Positions 1,041 to 64,000 of a stretch of 64,000 nucleotides of DNA are shown here, in pieces. The notes under the pieces were generated by a model. That model ran no database searches. It was given only the letters and a program-made list of their open reading frames with translations, and was not told where the DNA came from. The stretch lies in the sequence record OP292222.1. One strand, written 5' to 3'. This stretch comes from Escherichia phage Esco_phi_B-01. Within the stretch, counting starts at the first letter, position 1; the number at the start of each line of letters is the position of its first letter. A program made the position numbers and the translations under genes.

Positions 1041-1565
1041 ATGAACGCTAAAGATATTTTTTCACTGATTAATTTTAACAATGGTAATTTCAAATCTGAA
1101 AAACAAAGCAAGTTCTTTAACGACGTTGCTTGTGGTAATGAGATTACCGTATCTGGAGGAGAGATTTACAAAAGCCGTTGGAACTGGATTGCTATCATCG
1201 ATTCAGTTGGTATTGTAGAGCTCTATAAAAACACCAACAAAAAACGTACTCTTCACTGGAGTCGTGAAACCAACCAAGCTTATCAAGCTGAGCGTAATAA
1301 ACGTTTAATGCCTACCGAATCTGACCTGGCAAACGTTAAATCAGATATCGCTTATTTTGATAATCTGATTGCCGAACAACAAGCGGTTATTGATAAGTTT
1401 GACGAAATCAAAGCTTGTAAAGAGATTCCTGAATTCATGCGGGAATCAGTAAACGAACAATACGCCCTCACTTCAGGTCGTATCGAGCAGTACAAATCAC
1501 AACGAGCTGAACGCCAAGCTCTGCTTCAGAAATTTGAAGAGCGTTTAAAGACGGTTCTCGCATAA
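1041..1565 (+). CDS. hypothetical protein (174 aa) with C-terminal coiled-coil-like tail
   Basis: ORF directly downstream of PeSL promoter and SD ggagg. Confidence 0.6.
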   Translation: MNAKDIFSLINFNNGNFKSEKQSKFFNDVACGNEITVSGGEIYKSRWNWIAIIDSVGIVELYKNTNKKRTLHWSRETNQAYQAERNKRLMPTESDLANVKSDIAYFDNLIAEQQAVIDKFDEIKACKEIPEFMRESVNEQYALTSGRIEQYKSQRAERQALLQKFEERLKTVLA

Positions 1566-1628
1566 ACGCTTTATACCAAGGATGGTATAATGGTTCTAGG
1601 TTCTTAATTACTTACTGAGGAAATTATT

Positions 1629-2474
1629 ATGTCACAAGCAATTAATCAAATTCGTTCTGAAGTTAAAAAAGTTGTTAAATTTGGTCGTATTCCGAGTTCT
1701 AAAGAAGTGGTTGAAAAGGTCCTATATATGATGTGGGACAAGTTCAATGTTTGTACTGTTAAAGATGACTTCACTAAAATCTTTGACAAGACTAAAGGTT
1801 CGTTTACGTTAGAAGACCGAGTCATGAAAACTCTTCGTAAAACGGGTATGTTGTCTCGTGCTAATGCCAAAATTATTCTTAAAAATTATAACAAAGGCTA
1901 CGACCTTTATGGTCGTTTAATCCCGGCGATGACATTTGATGAAGTTGTTAAAGACCTTAATACTAATCAACGTCGTCTACTGGCCCTTGGTGCTCGCCTT
2001 GCAAAAGGTCAAGATAAACAAATGACCTTTAAGACTAACGGTTCAGGTGATTGGATTATCTTTAATATTGTTAATCATCCAAGAAATGAAAACGAGTATA
2101 CTATTTCCCATTACAGTGGGTGTCAATACGACAACTGGAAGTTCCATCTGCGCTTGGCCCTGTCTGAATTAGAACAACACGGTGTTCTTAGTTTTGGTGA
2201 TGCTGAAACTGGAGTAGGCCAACGTATTAAACTTTATAAAATTAAAGACCTGGCTGAAGAGCATTCAGAACAAGCTCCTAAAATGGAACCTGTACCAGTG
2301 CGCAGCAATGAGAAACATCAAGCCCAAATCGAGTATTTTAGCAATTTGCTTACTTGCTTGAATGTTACAATCCAACAACAAGATGATGAGATTTTCCGAC
2401 TCTCCGGTCTGAATGCCAAAGCTAAGGCTGAACGACAAAAATATATCGATATCTTAAATCTTCTTAAGGATTAA
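1629..2474 (+). CDS. hypothetical protein (281 aa); C-terminal segment resembles that of the 1041..1565 product
   Basis: ORF with canonical T4-type RBS ctGAGGAAAttattATG. Confidence 0.6.
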   Translation: MSQAINQIRSEVKKVVKFGRIPSSKEVVEKVLYMMWDKFNVCTVKDDFTKIFDKTKGSFTLEDRVMKTLRKTGMLSRANAKIILKNYNKGYDLYGRLIPAMTFDEVVKDLNTNQRRLLALGARLAKGQDKQMTFKTNGSGDWIIFNIVNHPRNENEYTISHYSGCQYDNWKFHLRLALSELEQHGVLSFGDAETGVGQRIKLYKIKDLAEEHSEQAPKMEPVPVRSNEKHQAQIEYFSNLLTCLNVTIQQQDDEIFRLSGLNAKAKAERQKYIDILNLLKD

Positions 2475-2476
2475 TT

Positions 2477-2677
2477 ATGGAAATCGCAGGTTTTATTCTT
2501 CTGTACCTTGCATTAGGATTCATTACTGTTCTGATTGGCCGCAAACATATGGAAATTAGCTCAGGTAGCGAAGCAGTATTCGCTACCTTTATTTGGCCGG
2601 TGCTTGCTTTATTTGGAATAGTTTCTATTGTGACTTGGCCTTTCGCTAAATTCTATGAAAAATTATTTGGACTTTAA
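2477..2677 (+). CDS. small hydrophobic membrane protein (66 aa)
   Basis: ORF; two predicted hydrophobic helices. Confidence 0.5.
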   Translation: MEIAGFILLYLALGFITVLIGRKHMEISSGSEAVFATFIWPVLALFGIVSIVTWPFAKFYEKLFGL

Positions 2678-2678
2678 T

Positions 2679-3548
2679 ATGAACATTAAAACACGTAAAG
2701 AATACTCTATATACGACCATGACACGACTCGTCGTATCGCTATCGATCGGCTGGCCGACTTTGGTCATATTTGTAATGGTAATTATACTTATGGTGTAGG
2801 CCGTAAAGGGACTTATATTAGTTCTTTGAATGATTATTGCCGTAGCCCAGCTCATTTATTTGGTGCAACACTACGAGCTAATATTAAAGACCTCTTGGCT
2901 ACTGCAGGACGTATTTCTACGGTTCCTGTTAATATAAAGAATATTAATTTTACGGCTCGTAACCTAGTCATTAATATTCTGCCTGATGGTATTCAAGTTC
3001 GTTTCCGTCCTACTTCAAAAGGTAATAAGGCTCTTCGTGAAGCATTCGAAACCTTATTCAGAGAAGCAATGACTCGTATTAAGGCCGTAGAATCATATAA
3101 AGTTACAACCGATGAATATGCTGATTGTTCTGGACGGGCTGATGCAGTGTATTTTAATGTTAAACTAACTCGTGAATATCTTTTGTCTTATGCCCCTTAT
3201 CAACCCCAACAAAAGGACCCACAAATGGAACGTCGTATCTCTGCAGTATCATGTGACAGCGTAGGCCAGTATGCAGCCTATGACAAATTCAAAACCACAG
3301 CTGTGCCTAGTCCATTCAATTCAGAACCGTATCATTGGAAAATTAGACCTGATAATTCTTTGGTTGTTACTAACCCTACGATGAAACCTATCGAGAAGTA
3401 TCATGAGGACCACCTCCAGGAATCAATCCACCGTTTAAACGGTCAGATCGAAGATGAGAAAAAGAGTATTCAAGACGTATTGATTCGCATCAAGAATATG
3501 GAAATCCAGCGTGACAAGCTTCGCGCGGCAGTATTAGCTCTAAAATAA
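2679..3548 (+). CDS. hypothetical protein (approx 289 aa)
   Basis: ORF; start chosen at first ATG after upstream stop (track start 2655 overlaps previous gene). Confidence 0.5.
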   Translation: MNIKTRKEYSIYDHDTTRRIAIDRLADFGHICNGNYTYGVGRKGTYISSLNDYCRSPAHLFGATLRANIKDLLATAGRISTVPVNIKNINFTARNLVINILPDGIQVRFRPTSKGNKALREAFETLFREAMTRIKAVESYKVTTDEYADCSGRADAVYFNVKLTREYLLSYAPYQPQQKDPQMERRISAVSCDSVGQYAAYDKFKTTAVPSPFNSEPYHWKIRPDNSLVVTNPTMKPIEKYHEDHLQESIHRLNGQIEDEKKSIQDVLIRIKNMEIQRDKLRAAVLALK

Positions 3549-3549
3549 T

Positions 3550-3579
3550 GTTTACATCCAAGGACGGATGGAGTATAAT
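3550..3579 (+). promoter_or_regulatory. early promoter (GTTTAC ... GAGTATAAT)
   Basis: -35/-10 motifs with 18-bp spacer. Confidence 0.55.
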
Positions 3580-3607
3580 CCTTTTATCAACTACTGAGGA
3601 GAATATC

Positions 3608-4618
3608 ATGACTCGTACTGAATACATCAATGCCTTTACTAAGTATATCACTGACAATACCCCTCCATTAACCCCATATATGGTAATAGTTTCTAATATC
3701 AATAAATGGGTAGACCAAATTGATGATGCATTATCGCGCTGTTTCAAAGCTGAAATAGAAAAGATTGCAGGGCGTTTGTTTATTCCTGATATCGTAGATA
3801 CATTTAAAGGTTCTCGACTGCTTTCTCGACTGGTCAATAAGGACATCCTTTCTGAGTTCGGTAAAGAGAAATATCCGGGTTCTAACCATGTTGTTAGCTA
3901 CAAATGGTTTGGTGATACCATAAAAGATTATGTCAAAATTAAAGGTATGGACCCTAGTAGTTTATTTCCGCAACGTTGGGTTAGCGAATTCAAGGCTAAC
4001 TCTGCATTAATTCTCAAAGCGGCCTCTAAAACTATAGTTTCCGGTGATTGTCGTACTATTCACCCGATGGCTAATTGCATGATTAAAACAAATAGTTATA
4101 AAGGAAAAGCTATTATTTCTGTTATTTGGTCGCCTAATAGGAAACCTAAAGATGATGCGGAAGTTGTAAAGTATCAAGATATTGCTTACGATACCTTGAA
4201 TACTATCGAACAAGCCTTAGCTTTGATGGATACAGTAGAGAAATATGAGACCCAAGAAGTTAAACACCACTTAGGCTGGAAAGGATATGAAGTTTTAGTA
4301 ACAGTTCGCGAAATCAAATGGCCTGTTCCAAAAACTGACGCTGAAATTTACCAAGAAAAATGTGAGGAAATTGTGAATACTGATAAAGAGCCTGCTACAT
4401 TAGAAGACTTGATTAACGACTTGAACAGCCCTATCATGGCCCATACACCAATTACTAAATCCAAGTTACCGGAAATCGTTGCCTTAGAAAAAGCGTATAA
4501 AGATGCCCTTGCTATCAACAAAAAACTGACCGGACAATATACCGCTGCCAAGAAACTTTGGGAAGAGTCTACCAATCGTTTAGACCGTCTTGAACAGGCT
4601 CTGGAGCTGTTGAAATGA
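3608..4618 (+). CDS. hypothetical protein (336 aa)
   Basis: ORF; start at ATG preceded by ctGAGGAGaatatc; track start 3548 lies inside promoter. Confidence 0.6.
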   Translation: MTRTEYINAFTKYITDNTPPLTPYMVIVSNINKWVDQIDDALSRCFKAEIEKIAGRLFIPDIVDTFKGSRLLSRLVNKDILSEFGKEKYPGSNHVVSYKWFGDTIKDYVKIKGMDPSSLFPQRWVSEFKANSALILKAASKTIVSGDCRTIHPMANCMIKTNSYKGKAIISVIWSPNRKPKDDAEVVKYQDIAYDTLNTIEQALALMDTVEKYETQEVKHHLGWKGYEVLVTVREIKWPVPKTDAEIYQEKCEEIVNTDKEPATLEDLINDLNSPIMAHTPITKSKLPEIVALEKAYKDALAINKKLTGQYTAAKKLWEESTNRLDRLEQALELLK

Positions 4619-4926: not shown

Positions 4927-5149
4927 AGAATATGTAGAGGCTGCCGATAAGGCAGTCCGCGAACTTACTCTGGCTTATTATAAAGAGCATGGTAAATTTC
5001 CGGACAGTTATTCAGTATTGAAATCTGCTTTAACTCGTTCGTATAATAATATACTATCTGATGTGTATGATTTAAAATACGAACACCTAGAAAAATATGG
5101 AACAGAACTTGACCGTTCTGAAGCATTCAAACAAGTATTAGGAATTTAA
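4913..5149 (+). CDS. hypothetical protein (78 aa)
   Basis: internal ATG of track ORF 4799..5149; overlaps end of upstream gene. Confidence 0.4.
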
Positions 5150-5150
5150 A

Positions 5151-5414
5151 ATGTTTAAAGTTTATGGGTACGATTCAAATATTCACCGTTGTGTTTTCTG
5201 TGATAATGCCAAACGTCTACTTGATGTTAAGAAGCAACCTTACGAATTCATTAACGTGATGCCGGAAAAAGGTGTATTTGATGATGAGAAGATTGCTGAA
5301 CTCTTGGCTGCTCTTGGACGTGAGTCTCAAGTAGGTTTGACCATGCCCCAGGTATTTGCTCCAGACGGAACTTCTATTGGCGGCTTTGACCAACTGCGAG
5401 CATATTTCAAATGA
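5151..5414 (+). CDS. nrdC: NrdC-type thioredoxin/glutaredoxin
   Basis: near-identity recalled to T4 NrdC N-terminus (MFKVYGYDSNIH.C..CDNAKRLL); CxxC active site. Confidence 0.9.
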   Translation: MFKVYGYDSNIHRCVFCDNAKRLLDVKKQPYEFINVMPEKGVFDDEKIAELLAALGRESQVGLTMPQVFAPDGTSIGGFDQLRAYFK

Positions 5415-5567
5415 TTGAATTATCGTTGGGTGTTTTGTATCTTATCATCGGTATTGGTTATGCTAGACCCTAGCTAAATTAGATGATTCCGGTGACTTTT
5501 GTTGGTGGCTGACGTCTATGATTTGTTGGCCTTTATTTCTGGTTGGTGCTTCATTCTGGAACTTTAA

Positions 5568-5876
5568 ATGATTGAATTAAATGAACAGACCATTTTTCTA
5601 GGTGATGGCACTGAAGATGACCTAGAATATAAACTATATGAATATATGGTTTGGCTGGCTAAAGCAGAAGGTATAGACTTTGTTGTAGCTCACCCATATG
5701 GCGAGAACACCGTTGTAATTGGTGGCGTTGCTTATGAAGTCCAATGGCAATACGTCGGGCTCGAATCCGAAGAATTTGAAGAAGATGAGCATGGTGATTG
5801 GCATCCAGTTGGCCCTTGGTATTGGGAAAACGGCGAGCCTGATTTTGAAGTAATTAGTTGGTGGCGTGACCATTAA
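5568..5876 (+). CDS. hypothetical acidic protein (102 aa)
   Basis: ORF. Confidence 0.45.
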   Translation: MIELNEQTIFLGDGTEDDLEYKLYEYMVWLAKAEGIDFVVAHPYGENTVVIGGVAYEVQWQYVGLESEEFEEDEHGDWHPVGPWYWENGEPDFEVISWWRDH

Positions 5877-6165
5877 GCCATGGTATGTCGCTCGGTGGGA
5901 AACTACCGAGCCAGAGGAACCAGTTTACAACGATTCCGAAATAGATTATAATGAACCTTCAAACAATGATTTAATCGATATGGAGTTTGGATATGAGTAC
6001 CAAAATTGAAGTTGGCCGTCATAAAGGCCGTCTGATTGAACATTCTCTTTACGAGTTATCGGATTCGGGTTCTTTACCTGACCTAGAGTCCGATTTGATT
6101 AAAGCTGCAGCCGATTATATTCATTGGCTTGAAGCTCAACTCCGCTTTTCTGATGAGGCCTTCTG

Positions 6166-10952: not shown

Positions 10953-11264
10953 ATGCAAAGCACCGACATTTCTCAATTGACTGAAGAGCAAATTGAAGAA
11001 GCCCAGAAGCGTTTAGAAGAGAATAATGCTAAAGAAGCCGCTTCTCAAGCTGCCAAAATTCTTAAAAAGAATGCCCGTGAAATTAAGCGTCTTAATACCC
11101 ATGCTCAGGGCGCTGTTCTTGAAAACAATTTCGAAGCTTACAAATATGCTATAATTAAATTACGTGGTATTTACCGTCAACCAACTACTGACGAAATCGT
11201 TAGAGTTATGTGGGAAACTACGCGTAAACAGATTTGGGAAATTATCAATGGCGCTAGTAAATAA
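10953..11264 (+). CDS. hypothetical protein (103 aa)
   Basis: ORF. Confidence 0.5.
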   Translation: MQSTDISQLTEEQIEEAQKRLEENNAKEAASQAAKILKKNAREIKRLNTHAQGAVLENNFEAYKYAIIKLRGIYRQPTTDEIVRVMWETTRKQIWEIINGASK

Positions 11265-57736: not shown

Positions 57737-58386
57737 CGAGTTCGACCTAATGTCCTCCCGGCCTGACCACACATAGACGAAAGTCTAGGAAATCCTAAAT
57801 CCGGTTTGGTATCGTACCAATATAATGATATCGAGCCGGCATAGATGTTATCCAAATTAAAAAACGGGCATGAAAACATATACGTGAATTGGGTTTTCTT
57901 CTTTGTAGGAAGGAACACAGTTTCTGTACTTGATTCAAAATAGTTTCCGTTAACTCCCGCCATATATTCTACTGACGTTTTGTCAATTGGAAACCCTCCC
58001 GTATTTTTTGCGTCTACCGTTTCCGGTAATTTACCCTCATAAGCAACCATATCCACAAAATAATTCATGTTGGTTGGTCTAAAAGAATATATTGCTGTGA
58101 AGTCTGCGCCTGAAGAAGAATGCACTATTCGGAGCTGCTCGATAGCCGCAATTTTAAATCTATTGTCCTGGTCTTGTCTAATCATTTCAGTATAAGAGGC
58201 ATAAGTTGTCTCTTTATAAAAGTTTAGAATATACTCGCCTTTATACCAAACTAATGCCATAAAGAACAATAATATTACGACTAGGACCCGGGAAAAAACT
58301 ACTTTCCCGGAAGAAGTATCTTTAAAAATTCTATCAAGAAGTCCAAAAAGTAGGTCTGATAATGAAAATCCTACTTTTGGTTCCAT
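57733..58386 (-). CDS. t: holin (T-type)
   Basis: similarity recalled to T4 holin t (LLFGLLDRIFKD, VVILLFFMA.VWY, YSFRP.N.NYFVD..AYEGKLP); converges on asiA. Confidence 0.9.
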   Translation of the reverse strand: MEPKVGFSLSDLLFGLLDRIFKDTSSGKVVFSRVLVVILLFFMALVWYKGEYILNFYKETTYASYTEMIRQDQDNRFKIAAIEQLRIVHSSSGADFTAIYSFRPTNMNYFVDMVAYEGKLPETVDAKNTGGFPIDKTSVEYMAGVNGNYFESSTETVFLPTKKKTQFTYMFSCPFFNLDNIYAGSISLYWYDTKPDLGFPRLSSMCGQAGRTLGRTR

Positions 58387-58404
58387 ACTTTTCTCCTTTA
58401 AAGA

Positions 58405-58412
58405 TATTTATA
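58405..58412 (-). promoter_or_regulatory. T4-type late promoter TATAAATA (minus strand) upstream of holin gene
   Basis: octamer on minus strand about 20 nt upstream of start, followed by SD aaggag. Confidence 0.5.
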
Positions 58413-58428
58413 ATTTAATACTTTCGTA

Positions 58429-59205
58429 TTATACCCAAGACCCGTAAATAGTACCTGTGGCACCCCATGAAGGACTATTACCACTTACAGCAGGCCCTGC
58501 AGCTCCAGGTGGAGACATGGATACACTGCGTCCATAACCCCAGCCGCCTGCAGCGCCTGCGTCACCGCCCCAACCGCCACCAAACTGTCCGCCGGCATCC
58601 CCGGGACCACCGGCCCCAGCATAACTAGCGTTACCGCCAGGTCTATAACTAGTTGCACCACCTAACCCGAATGGTCTGCCACCGCCACCGCCGCAGGTTG
58701 AGCCAGAAGGATAGCTATTTTGCAATGATGTAGCACCGCCACCACCGCCACCACCACAGATAACACCATAGTTCCATATGCGTAAACGCCCACCAATTTC
58801 ATTATAAATTGCTGTACCGCCTTGTTGGCCTCCACCGCCATTGGTTGCGCCATTACCACCGCGTCCCCACATATGAACCCCACCATGAATATTCAAAGTA
58901 ACGTATTCGTTAGGGATGTCACTATTCATAAAGAACAATGGAAGGTCTCTAGTATAAGATACTAAATCGCCGGTGATATTAAACACAATAGGTGCAGCGC
59001 CGGCTTCAAAACAACGGTCTCTAAACCAATACCCGTTGAAGTTGTGGTCCGCCCCAAGTGTGTGAATTATTTCAACAGACCGACCTATCATATTACTCAT
59101 CCAAAATGGAACACCCATTCTCAATCGTTGGGCTGCTCCTGCCATCCAAGGGTCCCCAGTTTGTACCCTTGCAGACCATCCTACCCACGGTCCTTCAACT
59201 GCCAT
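58429..59205 (-). CDS. 38: gp38 receptor-binding adhesin with glycine-rich motifs
   Basis: N-terminal region recalled as gp38-like ([37 protein letters not shown]); multiple poly-Gly runs; start at ATG with SD ggagg (track start 59217 is TTG). Confidence 0.85.
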
Positions 59206-59236
59206 ATAAACCTCCAAGGGGCCTAGGCCCCTCTTA

Positions 59237-62200
59237 TTATTTTAACAATGATTTAACTAAAGCTTTAAGTTCTTCAATCTCTGATTTCAATTCTGCTATT
59301 TCGGCAGTGTGCTCATTGATTGCAGCTGTATTTAAACCAATTACACCGTTATAGTTCAAACGAAGTAAAGCTTCACCATCAGGGTCACCTTCAACCAATT
59401 CAGGTAAAATAGCTTGAACTTCTTGGGCAATTAAACCAGCATTAGGTTCCCATTTCTGATTACCTTCCTCATCTAGGCCTCGCTTCTGCATATAAGTGTA
59501 ACCGTTAATTTTAGAAAGCTTCTGAGAAGCATTTTCAAATTTAACAAGGTCCTTTTTAACACGAATATCAGAGCGGACATAAACATCGCGGACAAACGTA
59601 GAATAGGCATCACTTTGTTGGACTAAATGCCCATAAGAAATAATAGCTCTTCCTGTTTCGGTCCACAAAGCACCGGTGGTATCCCAAAGACCTTGATGAA
59701 TCTGATAACCGGCTGACCATGAAGCAATATGAACACCATTGGCAACCATATTGATTCGGCCATCGCCACCATGAACTAATCCGGTATCATTATCACCAAT
59801 AACAAGACATGGTCCGGCCCACACAGGGTCACCGCCGCCAGCTGATAATCTTGCTCCAGTTTTAACCATGTTAGGAACAAACAGAGTTCCATTGTGGTGG
59901 AATTCATATATAGCTTGTGGGTCAGAACCGTTTTCTTGGTTACCTACACGAATAATACCTTGCGCCCATGTATTAGTGATGCGTCGCATGCCAAAATCAA
60001 CACCTGATATGTATCCTTCGTTAGTAATACCAGATTTTCCTTTGATAATTGGATAATAACTATCATTACCAACATTACCAAAATCAACAAATACCGGTGC
60101 TTCTTGCTTCCATTGGTTTCCCCAATCGCCAGCCTGGTGGGATGCCCAGACAGAGCCATTAATAAAAAGACGGTCCCTATTAAAATTAAAAGTGGCTGAA
60201 CCTTGTGGGTTTAAAGCAATATCGCCGTCTGCATTAATATTTACGCCTGAATTAGTTTGAAAACTATAAATTGATACAGCATTATCGGCACCGCCGTTAC
60301 CTACATACCAGTTATCAATACCAGCTTTTTGTCCTTTCATATAACCAGATTCGGTTGCAGCACTGTTAATAACAATAGCATCCGAGTTTGCATTCAGCGT
60401 TAAACGCCCGGTCATTGTGTCGCCGCCTTTACCTACACGAGTATTCACCGCTGCGTCAAGGTTAGTAGCACCGCTATACTTGTTCCAAATAGAACCTGCA
60501 ATATTACCATCAGTATTCATGAAAGCTGTACCGGCATATAAGCGGTTCTGAGCCATGAAGTTACCTTCTTTGGTAAAGCGCCAGTATTTTAATCCGGTTG
60601 TAACGCCATCGCCCTGCAAATCACCTTGAGCAACAATTCGGTATTCGCTCGTGGTGCGGTCCATACCTTGAGTAATAGTTACATTAGAAACTGTATTTTT
60701 CTGCTTGGTAATTGGATAGAATGCTTGGGTTGCTGCACCAAGTGTTTGATACAACGGAGCTTTAGTCGTATTCTGGTTGGCATAAGATGCACCATTACCA
60801 GCAGGGAATTCTAATACGCTGTTAGCAATAAAAGAAACTTGGTCAGCCGCTAAATTAGGGATTTTAACTTGACCGGTGTCTAACGTAATACTTAATGGGC
60901 GTAATGGGCCTAATCCGCCACTTTCGCCGGCATTAACATTGGTTGGGATAATATGCAGCTGGTCTTCTGAATTTCGGAAAATAACACCATATTTATCATT
61001 CCAAATACGAAGACCACTAGCAGCGCGGACTTTAATTTCATTGGAAACATACAGATTGCGTTTTAAGGATGTATCTTGACTGACAGACAATCCTTCGACG
61101 ATGTTCATCGTACCGTTTAAATAAGATTCGACTTTACCTGCTGTAGTTCGTTGAATATAGTGCATCCAGCCGGTAGCATCAGATGTTTCCAATACGTTTT
61201 TACGAGAACCACCTACCGTATTAAAAGTGTCACCCCAACCTTTGAGCTCTATATTATCAACTGAACTATATCCTGTGGTACTTCCTTTAAAAATCACAGT
61301 GGAAGCGTTACCACGACCGTCAATATTAACCGAACCACCACGGACTTCAACGTTACCAGGAGTAACCAACAACCCACCATCAGTGTTAACGTTTGTTACA
61401 CCTTTACCACGGAAATAATGGTGGTATTTACCACTCTGATGATAACCTAAAAGAGTCTGTCCATCACCAAAGCCGTTTTTATCATTAGTAGTATTAACAA
61501 TAACTAATGGATAGTTTTGAGCTGTAGGAAGAATTAAATCAGAACCGTTGGTTGAATAACCAGCAACTAACTGTTTAAGGCTTGTAACTTCAGTCGGAGT
61601 TGTAAGTAAAGTATAAGCTCCATTATTAACTGTATGGAACTGGCCGTCTTGTTTCCATTTCAAACCTGTGTTATTGTCACCAAGAGCAATTGAAGCCGTC
61701 CCTAATTCAGAATATCCTTTAGGGCCACCTGGAAGACCTACAGAAATAGAATGACCGGCTTTCAATCCACCGGACCAGGTAAACGACCAAAGATAAGTGT
61801 CTAAGCCATCTCCGGAATACCAGGCTATTCCGTCATTAACATTAACTTCGTGGAAAATACCTGCTCCTACAGCATTTCGCATAACACGGAGGTGGTTAAT
61901 AGCCGTTTCGCTTTCTGCCAATGGAGTGTTATTTGATAATGAAGATATATCGTAATCGCCGGCGGCTTTACCGTCGGTAATAACTTTATTAGTATAAATT
62001 ATTGGAGATTTTACCGATGTTCCACCAGAAATAGATGGAGCATAAAATAAACCGTCACCGTTGAATGCAAAAATATTAGATGTTGAATTAGTGTAATCCT
62101 GAACACGAACATTTAAGATTTGCTTGGTATCCCCAGCACGGTTTTGAGAATAAATTATGCCTCTTTCACGCGCATCAGCCAAATCCTGGAATCGAACGTG

Positions 62201-62557
62201 GGTAGTTCCTGCACCCCGTACAAGAACTTCACCGTTATCTGTCATTAGGCGAGATTTTGCTGTGATATCACCATTTGCTGTTATACTTCCGGATGTCGTA
62301 TAACTACCTGTTTGGGTAAAAGCACCCTTCAGGGCATAATCGCCGGTCTGGTTGTAGTTACCGTTATGAATAACGTTTCCGTCGATATTACCACCTTTAG
62401 CAAAGCCAAGGTCGATAATCGCTCCAGTGTCATCTTTGGTAAATAACAAACGGTCTTTTAAGTTAATAGCCAGCTCGCCTTCAGCCAACTGCGCTGGCGT
62501 AGGACGTACACCAGCTACTTTACTTCTTTTAAATTGTATCTGTTTTAAAGTAGCCAT
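59237..62557 (-). CDS. 37: long tail fiber distal subunit gp37
   Basis: N-terminus [17 protein letters not shown]...[13 protein letters not shown] matches T4 gp37. Confidence 0.93.
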
Positions 62558-62565
62558 AATGCCTC

Positions 62566-63213
62566 TTAATAATAACCAAAATCTTGAATAGAATCTTTTT
62601 GAACAATCTGGTCAAAGCGAGGAACGTGTCCTGCACCAGAGGCCGGATTCCGTGAAATAAAGTTAGGAGCCGCTAGCACTCCATCCATTATTTGCATGTC
62701 AGTATTATTTATTTGGACCTGTTTTGCGTTATCTACTAATGACAATCCAACTTGGGCTTTAGTAGGGGTGTTGCCTGGGCTGAATACGCGGCCTGATTCA
62801 TCATAAACTTGACGGAATAACGAATCACCCATTACAGTAAGACGTTTAGCACCAACTGTTGTATTTGGGTCAAATATCATAAACGGAGTACCATCTTCCG
62901 TTTCATATCCAAAAGCACCTTTAATACGGAAAGAAGCTGTGAACGGGGCTCCGCCGGTTCTTGCTCCTAATTTAATACCATATCCATTAGTATCATTAAA
63001 GGTCAAACCTTTTTCAAAATACACGTTGTTCTGATAATTACCACCGTTAGCTTTTGAAACGAAATCGTTATCAACTGCTTGAGGTTTATTATACTCGGTG
63101 TAAACTTTATATGTTTTGTAAAGAAGGTCGTTTGATACAGGCGTTAAAGGAAAATTACCTTGGTGCCATAATACCGAACCTCCTGCTGTAGAACCTAATT
63201 TTAAATCTGCCAT
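62566..63213 (-). CDS. 36: long tail fiber hinge subunit gp36
   Basis: N-terminus MADLK.GST.GGSV.WHQGNFPL and C-terminus PRFDQIV.KDS.QDFGYY match T4 gp36. Confidence 0.92.
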   Translation of the reverse strand: MADLKLGSTAGGSVLWHQGNFPLTPVSNDLLYKTYKVYTEYNKPQAVDNDFVSKANGGNYQNNVYFEKGLTFNDTNGYGIKLGARTGGAPFTASFRIKGAFGYETEDGTPFMIFDPNTTVGAKRLTVMGDSLFRQVYDESGRVFSPGNTPTKAQVGLSLVDNAKQVQINNTDMQIMDGVLAAPNFISRNPASGAGHVPRFDQIVQKDSIQDFGYY

Positions 63214-63261
63214 TTGAGTTTCCTTTGGGAGTTATAGCCTTTTATATATTTATGGCTGTAG

Positions 63262-63291
63262 AAAATGAAAAAGGAACCCGAAGGTTCCTTA
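63262..63291 (-). terminator. hairpin + T-run on minus strand after gp35 (aaggaacc-ttcg-ggttcctt-tttcatttt)
   Basis: stem-loop with UUCG loop and U-rich tail on minus strand. Confidence 0.55.
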
Positions 63292-64000
63292 ATATTTTTC
63301 TCTAAATTCAGCGACCCAAACCTGACCAGGCTTAGTACCTGTTTTATCGTATAACTGAGCTATGGTAGTACCCATATTCTTAGTTTCGGTACCGAAATTC
63401 ATACGAATACCATTTACACCAAATTCGGCTGATTTAGGTTGAGATTCTGGCTCTGATACTTCACCAAACATCACATTACGTACACCGCCAACTCCATCGG
63501 CCACTGTTTTTCTTGCATACAATGTAAATGTTTCAGTATTAGCAGGAACTTCAATTACCCGCTCAAAAGTCATCCAAGACCCAGCAGGGACATTAGGTGG
63601 AACTTCCATATTAACCGACCCTGTTAAAGCACCTGAGGCATTAAAAAATCTAACAGACATCTGAGAGGTCCCTAAATCTTTTAATTCCTGGTCACACATC
63701 ATTTGGAATTTAAGATAAAAGAATTCTCCAGGCTTCATATTATAATCGGCGCAAGGAGTAGTAGGAGATTCAGTAGGGAAACGTTTTATTTCCTCTCCAT
63801 CATTACTTAGATAAGTGTTTTCATCTTCCACTATTCTTATAGGATACCCGGTGCCGCCAACATCACTGATATCGTCAAAAACGACTTCTAATGGTGTAGA
63901 AACATCTTCAACAAACACCCCATCATTATAAAGGACGTGTTCCATCACTATAGTATTTCTACCGGACACGTAAAAGGCCGAATAAGACGGCTCGAAGCGG
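63289..64000 (-). CDS. 35: long tail fiber proximal connector gp35, 5'-truncated by window edge
   Basis: synteny 35-36-37-38; frame open to position 64000. Confidence 0.75.
   Translation of the reverse strand, partial: RFEPSYSAFYVSGRNTIVMEHVLYNDGVFVEDVSTPLEVVFDDISDVGGTGYPIRIVEDENTYLSNDGEEIKRFPTESPTTPCADYNMKPGEFFYLKFQMMCDQELKDLGTSQMSVRFFNASGALTGSVNMEVPPNVPAGSWMTFERVIEVPANTETFTLYARKTVADGVGGVRNVMFGEVSEPESQPKSAEFGVNGIRMNFGTETKNMGTTIAQLYDKTGTKPGQVWVAEFREKY

Follow-up and report, generated by a model that had tools for sequence, protein, structure and literature searches.

Few parts of the T4 genome are as poorly understood as the nrdC.3-nrdC.8 block, in which nrdC.5 is the sole gene with a reported role, as T4 nrdC.5 restores plating on cells that carry Dsr1, a SIR2 defence of E. 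coli ECOR17 (Srikant et al. 2022, PMC9391042). A literature search on the Pfam accessions of the families considered here and on the mechanism of Dsr1 inhibition returned nothing beyond PMC9391042. Two other products of the block, NrdC.3 and NrdC.4, are merged into one family by PHROGs. DSAD1 of the SPbeta-like phages, an inhibitor of the SIR2-type NADase defence DSR2, is a possible functional analogue of NrdC.5; it comes from another phage group, acts on another defence protein and is likened to NrdC.5 by function only. In this study, we analysed the corresponding genes in a 64,000-nucleotide (nt) stretch of Escherichia phage Esco_phi_B-01 (OP292222.1), the whole of which is referred to as the window. 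Our analysis suggests that the NrdC.6, NrdC.5 and NrdC.4 proteins of the window, together with NrdC.3 of T4, are diverged paralogues of one design that ends in a helical C-terminal segment, which is called the tail below.

The 3.7-kb region that holds these genes is 92-95% identical in DNA to the Dhakavirus coliphages of the JS98/IME08 group and is matched by 587 records of T-even-like phages; judged by its sequence, the source of the window is a T-even-like coliphage of the Dhakavirus type. The four open reading frames (ORFs) that the preliminary description of this DNA had listed were all present where it had placed them, and they were identified as the orthologues of T4 nrdC.8, nrdC.6, nrdC.5 and nrdC.4 from their synteny with IME08 and T4, which was backed by the family hidden Markov models (HMMs; E 1e-102 to 1e-143). 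The region is thus the nrdC.8-nrdC.4 part of the early accessory block that lies between nrdC.10 and nrdC. The features of the four genes, including the helices of the AlphaFold2 (AF2) models, are as follows (lengths in amino acids, aa):

1041..1565, + strand: nrdC.8, 174 aa
1629..2474, + strand: nrdC.6, 281 aa
2319..2468, + strand: C-terminal helix of NrdC.6, residues 231-280 (AF2 model, DSSP)
2655..3548, + strand: nrdC.5 (DUF7235), 297 aa, or 289 aa from the ATG at 2679
3387..3545, + strand: tail of NrdC.5, the 53 residues up to its C-terminus (alignment; putative helix)
3608..4618, + strand: nrdC.4, 336 aa
4469..4612, + strand: C-terminal helix of NrdC.4, residues 288-335 (AF2 model and alignment)

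Each of the last three genes has a described counterpart in T4. The window NrdC.5 shares with T4 NrdC.5 a full-length match to DUF7235 (PF23882; 403 bits, the Pfam gathering score being 30, E 1.2e-120, profile positions 1-307), the position between nrdC.6 and nrdC.4 and the C-terminal tail, but it is 43-51 residues shorter and only 24-29% identical (tblastn against T4 nrdC.5: 24.7% identity, E 2e-9). The match begins at profile position 1 when the alternative ATG at 2655 (297 aa) is used, and the family also corresponds to phrog_2351. In the case of NrdC.6, the window copy and those of the T4 type have in common the conserved core YNKGYDLYGR...NQRRLLALGARLA and the tail DDEIFRL...LLK, while their identity is 48% and the tail, which is intact in the window, was lost from the T4 reference copy by a 1-nt deletion. 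The ORF at 3608-4618 is a full-length member of the T4 NrdC.4/NrdC.3 family (phrog_1435, PF26897); it differs in that the N-terminal domains of the Dhakavirus and T4 NrdC.4 are 42% identical and in that the window is without nrdC.3.

Relationship of NrdC.3, NrdC.4, NrdC.5 and NrdC.6

The match of the window NrdC.4 to phrog_1435 covered the full length of the protein (E 1.6e-143, profile positions 1-334), and its homologues, all 38 of which carry PF26897, invariably begin with MTR.EYI. An exhaustive search of 1.84 billion representative proteins with the NrdC.4 profile found only proteins of T-even phages, among them the T4-type NrdC.3, which was reached through its N-terminal 215-230 residues at an E-value of 3e-6. 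Together with searches of a word-indexed set of 5.8 billion proteins, which were made for NrdC.6, NrdC.8 and NrdC.4, these deep searches confined the three families to T-even-like phages and returned no cellular homologues. When the last 55 residues were removed and the remaining N-terminal domains were compared as profiles using hhalign, NrdC.3 matched NrdC.4 (E 1e-13) and NrdC.4 matched NrdC.5 over 154 columns (E 4e-5; overall 4e-5 to 1e-4). Two families from other T4-like phages, PHROGs 26858 and 33957, had colinear matches to the NrdC.4 globular domain, the NrdC.5 tail and a protein of a Klebsiella phage; positions 276-336 of the phrog_26858 profile correspond to residues 237-297 of the window NrdC.5. 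The tail of the latter, PIEKYHED...KLRAAVLALK, also aligned end to end with the tail of T4 NrdC.3 (hhalign E 3e-4), which ends in LRNAIEVLK.

The window NrdC.6 was a full-length match to its own family (phrog_2257, E 2.2e-127), of which 104 homologues carry PF26899, and its likeness to the other proteins was seen in the predicted structures. The models, which were built with family alignments, had a predicted local distance difference test (pLDDT) score of 80 for NrdC.4 and 79 for NrdC.6. In the NrdC.4 model, a globular alpha/beta part (residues 1-235) is followed by two short helices (244-257 and 265-272), a disordered linker of low confidence (273-285) and a helix (288-335). The NrdC.6 model has a globular alpha/beta part (1-207), a disordered low-confidence linker (208-229) and a single helix (231-280, as assigned by DSSP). 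The elements come in the same order in both: five N-terminal helices, short strands, two helices, a hairpin-helix-hairpin, the linker and a single terminal helix of 48-50 residues that follows the disordered linker; three short strands are seen in the NrdC.4 model, while the NrdC.6 model has isolated strand residues only. Foldseek searches of BFVD with the NrdC.4 model found NrdC.3 (E 4e-7) and the NrdC.6 of phage Sf25 (E 1e-3). Two proteins of 309-335 aa were common to both models, namely one of Pectobacterium phage PM2 (E 2.5e-6 to the NrdC.4 model and 8e-9 to the NrdC.6 model) and one of Acinetobacter phage fHyAci03 (7.5e-8 and 5e-7, respectively). More distant T4-like phages have one such protein near nrdC: Klebsiella KpV477 gp087 (324 aa; E 3.6e-4 to the NrdC.4 profile), Acinetobacter AM101 gp116 (335 aa; E 7.7e-5 to the NrdC.5 profile) and a protein of Cronobacter VP8 (371 aa), all three with a long tail that appears helical by eye.

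Several observations weigh against a common family with an anti-defence role. NrdC.5 was not retrieved by the NrdC.4 profile in the search of 1.84 billion proteins, and the probability that hhalign assigned to this pair was 57-75%. The sequence profiles of NrdC.6 gave E-values of 0.07-0.16, with a single value of 0.0012 to NrdC.3, so that NrdC.6 would be joined to the others by predicted structure only; moreover, the likeness of the NrdC.4 and NrdC.6 models was read from the order of their elements and their shared matches, and the Foldseek root-mean-square deviations were large because the orientation of the tail is free. The window NrdC.5 is also only 24-29% identical to the T4 protein that was tested against Dsr1, and this activity may not carry over.

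Taken together, the N-domain profile matches, the bridging PHROGs, the order of elements in the models and the shared Foldseek targets led us to the view that NrdC.3, NrdC.4, NrdC.5 and NrdC.6 are strongly diverged full-length paralogues of one design; this is firm for NrdC.3 and NrdC.4 and probable for NrdC.5, and it is suggested by predicted structure for NrdC.6. The claim that the genes encode different N-terminal domains did not hold, as those of NrdC.3, NrdC.4 and NrdC.5 appear to be homologous and the NrdC.6 model resembles that of NrdC.4. Likewise, NrdC.8 had been paired with NrdC.6 and NrdC.5 with NrdC.4, while the grouping that emerged is NrdC.6, NrdC.5 and NrdC.4 (with NrdC.3 in T4), NrdC.8 standing apart.

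The account that we consider probable as a whole combines the identity of the locus, the tandem paralogy of NrdC.3-NrdC.6, an anti-defence role and a likeness of the tails that stems from shared architecture. NrdC.6, NrdC.5 and NrdC.4, with NrdC.3 in T4, would be tandem, strongly diverged paralogues of a design that is found across T4-like phages, where it adjoins nrdC in the three distant loci that were checked, and that would have expanded to an array in the T-even group. The design would consist of an alpha/beta globular domain of 210-280 residues, a flexible linker and, up to the C-terminus, one amphipathic helix some 50 residues long. Different host targets would be bound by the globular domain, which evolves fast, and oligomerisation or docking to a conserved partner would fall to the terminal helix, which evolves more slowly; the tails would resemble each other through the shared architecture and helix periodicity rather than through a recently shared or shuffled module. 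We infer that host-range or anti-defence factor is the most likely role of these paralogues, because T4 NrdC.5 counteracts Dsr1 (PMC9391042). If the four proteins are one family, nrdC.3, nrdC.4 and nrdC.6 become candidate counter-defence or host-range genes, which is of use to phage-host biology and to the selection of therapeutic phages. The unification of the families and the pattern of tail conservation are a modest, incremental insight on genes that are themselves known as hypothetical genes, in a phage group that has been well sequenced, and do not amount to a new kind of system.

Divergence and rearrangement of the nrdC.3-nrdC.6 genes

The presence of nrdC.3, nrdC.4, nrdC.5 and nrdC.6 varies between genera and strains. 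T4 has all four, the window and the other Dhakaviruses are without nrdC.3, the Mosigviruses are without nrdC.4 and phage Pinarejo is without nrdC.6, whereas nrdC.8 was present in every locus compared. The identity between the window and the T4-type proteins was 0.29 for NrdC.5, 0.45 for NrdC.4 and 0.48 for NrdC.6, compared to about 0.7 for the neighbours NrdC.8, NrdC.2 and NrdC.1; the neighbour NrdC.9 was as divergent as NrdC.5 (0.29). This bore out the earlier view of consecutive accessory genes from a fast-diverging group.

The divergence was not even along the proteins. In NrdC.4, the identity between the window and the T4 type was 0.42 in the N-terminal part and 0.65 in the tail, and the corresponding values in NrdC.6 were 0.44 and 0.63. 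A metagenomic NrdC.4, P0187, has a tail that is 73% identical and an N-terminal domain that is 26% identical. Within Dhakavirus, the ratio of nonsynonymous to synonymous substitution rates (dN/dS) was 0.2-0.3 in the N-terminal part of NrdC.4 and 0.06-0.31 in that of NrdC.6, while it was about 0-0.1 in the tails of both (0-0.09 in NrdC.4 and about 0 in five of the six comparisons in NrdC.6); in NrdC.5, it was about 0.1 throughout. The C-terminal helix is the most conserved part of the NrdC.4 family and its tail is nearly invariant, including the solvent-facing residues W318, E319, E320, R324, E329, Q330 and K336. The invariance of these outer residues is more in keeping with a specific interaction surface than with a generic zipper. 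In the NrdC.6 family, DDEIFRL and LLK are invariant in the tail alignment; the window protein ends in ...YIDILNLLKD. The pattern in NrdC.4-NrdC.6 is relaxed or diversifying relative to their neighbours. The preliminary description had spoken of a diversifying family, which agrees with the low identity and the variable presence, but there was no gene-wide positive selection, as the gene-wide dN/dS was at most 0.3, and this also counts against the account given above.

Rearrangements that involve the tails were found in several phages. Salmonella phage Manna gp094 (5113-6150) is an in-frame fusion of residues 1-258 of NrdC.6 with the last 83 residues of NrdC.4, joined where the two genes share 10 nt of microhomology (TGATGAAATT); these nucleotides encode the DEI of the motif that had been proposed for the tails. 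The fusion removes nrdC.5 and most of nrdC.4, and we read it as a microhomology deletion that happened to stay in frame; it demonstrates that tail swaps can arise, not that such swaps are the origin of the family. Phage Pinarejo has lost nrdC.6 by deletion except for an unannotated remnant of its tail (5001-5135), which is 62% identical to residues 236-280 of the window protein and is flanked by nrdC.7 and nrdC.5. We considered whether the isolated nrdC.6 tail of Pinarejo and the nrdC.4 tail of Manna are tails on new domains, and rejected this, as the former is a deletion remnant and the latter a deletion fusion.

Two further irregularities were observed in nrdC.6. Relative to Manna and other T4-type phages, the T4 gene has a 1-nt deletion (AF158101.6, about 5553-5740, which corresponds to about 2320-2470 in the window), in which GAGCTAAATATT became GAGCTGATATT. 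The deletion shifts the frame and therefore the annotated product ends in ...ELIFLFNNMMMKFSDYLD, while the usual tail, ISIQQYDDEIFRLSGL...DLLKS, can still be read in a different frame. In the NrdC.6 of Shigella phage Sf25 (378 aa), an internal segment of about 82 residues is duplicated in tandem, and IRAHSTDYVNMGHH...DYFNKQIEEL occurs twice; the segment covers the latter half of the globular domain and the beginning of the tail.

Likeness of the tails and rival explanations

The tails of all four window proteins are probably helical segments, as predicted by the AF2 models for NrdC.4 and NrdC.6 and as suggested by the sequences of NrdC.5 and NrdC.8. The two pairs that had been described as having related C-terminal segments, NrdC.8/NrdC.6 and NrdC.5/NrdC.4, did score highest of all tail pairs in the window. 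Their similarity did not reach significance in pairwise BLASTP of the four proteins (E 0.36 and 0.55, respectively), and the NrdC.5/NrdC.4 matches fell outside the tails. Using hhalign, the whole NrdC.8 and NrdC.6 proteins gave E-values of 0.054-0.16, and the tails alone gave 0.004 for NrdC.8/NrdC.6 and 0.025 for NrdC.5/NrdC.4, the latter with an offset of one heptad. Smith-Waterman scores were above those of composition shuffles (p 0.043 for NrdC.8/NrdC.6 and 0.0185 for NrdC.5/NrdC.4) but not significantly above those of shuffles that preserved the heptads (p 0.26 and 0.064, respectively). Neither the HMMs of single-family tails nor a pooled NrdC.3, NrdC.4 and NrdC.5 tail HMM retrieved the tails of other families above the other ORFs among the 253 ORFs of the window. 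The end-anchored ungapped scores of the tail pairs were in the top 0.3-10% of all ORF pairs and were not outliers. No DNA repeat was found between the tails, so the genome of Esco_phi_B-01 has undergone no recent gene conversion or duplication there. In the tail-alone tests, the similarity thus did not exceed what coiled-coil composition and periodicity would give, an outcome that the preliminary description had itself named as a refutation, and in this sense a common tail was not confirmed. In the course of these searches, a 103-aa ORF at 10953-11264, which is probably another small helical protein, was the recurrent best non-family match of the tail HMMs (E 0.15-0.9) and scored no lower than the tails of other families.

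The motif that had been proposed for NrdC.8 and NrdC.6 was recovered in part: the pair is one of the two that score best, but its alignment needs a 1-residue gap before DEI and one of about 20 residues before AERQ, and the NL of the motif is not conserved in the NrdC.6 family. A terminal motif, h..[AITV][ILV].[LVAI]L[KNS], occurred in three of the 253 ORFs of the window, which are those of the consecutive NrdC.6, NrdC.5 and NrdC.4 products; it is merely suggestive because it was defined post hoc from the same sequences. The term coiled-coil-like may suit the long lone terminal helix of the NrdC.4 and NrdC.6 models, and a crude heptad score had its best segment in the tail for NrdC.8, NrdC.6 and NrdC.4. 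This score was just 0.6-1.8 standard deviations above shuffles, which speaks against the account preferred here, and a coiled coil would therefore be deduced mainly from the predicted helix.

Two other explanations of the array were weighed against diverged paralogy. In one of them, which is close to the earlier image of variable domains on a common tail, recombination placed unrelated N-terminal domains on the same coiled-coil module, which forms the C-terminus and binds a single shared partner. Manna gp094 is a natural in-frame chimera joined at TGATGAAATT, P0187 combines a conserved NrdC.4 tail with a much diverged N-terminal domain, and the NrdC.6, NrdC.5 and NrdC.4 products all end in h..A/I-h-x-h-L-K, all of which speak for such shuffling. 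We nevertheless consider it unlikely, as the N-terminal domains appear to be homologous or of shared fold, the similarity between tails from different families loses its significance once the heptad periodicity is kept and their HMMs do not cross-match, a DNA repeat between them is absent, and the Manna fusion, which also deletes nrdC.5 and most of nrdC.4, looks like an in-frame deletion. What stands of the earlier image is that the tail is the conserved part in the NrdC.4 and NrdC.6 families; the N-terminal domains do not appear to be different, and the tails may share a binding partner. The other explanation is chance or convergence, whereby four unrelated proteins would each end in an amphipathic helix, as is common in small phage proteins, and the perceived motifs would be coiled-coil composition. 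The BLASTP E-values of 0.36-0.55, the heptad-preserving p-values of 0.06-0.26 and the unexceptional end-anchored scores speak for it, and nothing stronger was found for NrdC.8. It is improbable as an account of the whole array, since the evidence for NrdC.3-NrdC.6 lies outside the tails, in the N-domain profiles, the database-wide match to NrdC.3, the bridging PHROGs, the element order and the Foldseek targets.

As an extension of the paralogy that we prefer, NrdC.3-NrdC.6 might form a modular anti-defence platform in which a conserved C-terminal helix for docking or oligomerisation carries a fast-evolving domain, each paralogue disarms a different host immune protein (Dsr1 in the case of NrdC.5) and short in-frame tail recombination, as in Manna, makes new combinations; this is a speculative proposal that we hold to be rather doubtful. 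The products of nrdC.4, nrdC.5, nrdC.6, nrdC.8 and nrdC.10, none of which has a thioredoxin domain, are widely labelled thioredoxin in GenBank, and it is conceivable on this ground that the four proteins are enzymes related to thioredoxin or nucleotide reductase. The annotation strings in database records are all that speaks for this. Pfam gave no thioredoxin or glutaredoxin match in any of the four proteins, a CxxC motif is absent from all four sequences, the AF2 models do not match thioredoxin folds, and the label appears to have spread from the locus name nrdC.x; NrdC itself is encoded at 5151-5414. The annotation was therefore rejected as almost certainly wrong.

NrdC.8 and the neighbouring genes

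The window NrdC.8 matched its family HMM over the full length (phrog_2274, E 8.5e-102) and is 69% identical to T4 NrdC.8. All 44 homologues carry PF26901 and are at least 60% identical, and dN/dS was 0.03-0.12. Judged by eye from the sequence, the N-terminal part of about 90 residues is strand-rich and the C-terminal part of about 80 residues is helical and interrupted at Pro130. There was no significant profile match between NrdC.8 and NrdC.3-NrdC.6 (best whole-protein profile E 0.054), nor was a shared domain or tail established by the tail-only comparison (E 0.004; heptad-preserving p 0.26). NrdC.8 thus appears to be a small, strongly conserved protein in its own right, whose C-terminal half looks helical, and none of these comparisons linked it to NrdC.3-NrdC.6.

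The other features of the region are listed below:

8-631: nrdC.10, 3' part (synteny)
642-983: nrdC.9 (synteny)
2477..2677, + strand: small hydrophobic ORF, 66 aa (phrog_7899, E 8.5e-24), not in the NrdC.3-NrdC.6 family
3551..3579, + strand: sigma-70-like promoter match (TTTACA, 17-nt spacer, TATAAT; 11/12)
between nrdC.4 and nrdC: nrdC.2 and nrdC.1 (synteny)
5151-5414: nrdC proper (synteny)

The 66-aa ORF is kept between nrdC.6 and nrdC.5 in the Dhakavirus and Gaprivervirus loci. It is strongly hydrophobic and, if nrdC.5 is read from its longer start, the two overlap by 23 nt; in T4, there is instead a 133-aa membrane protein, NrdC.7, upstream of nrdC.6. The sigma-70-like match sits in the gap between nrdC.5 and nrdC.4, and only this placement is suggestive because the total number of matches in the region (18, with 16 expected by chance) does not exceed chance.

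NrdC.10 is 85% identical to that of T4 with a dN/dS of 0.01-0.04, and is much more conserved than its neighbours; the hypervariable block therefore lies directly beside a core-like gene. Its homologues extend to Vibrio, Aeromonas and jumbo phages, and it is labelled as an AAA-ATPase in a Rhodobacter phage. Beyond about 58 kb, at the other end of the window (58001-64000), the guanine-cytosine (GC) skew flips from about +0.09 to -0.19/-0.08 and the GC content climbs to 0.41-0.44, which is consistent with a switch of the coding strand.

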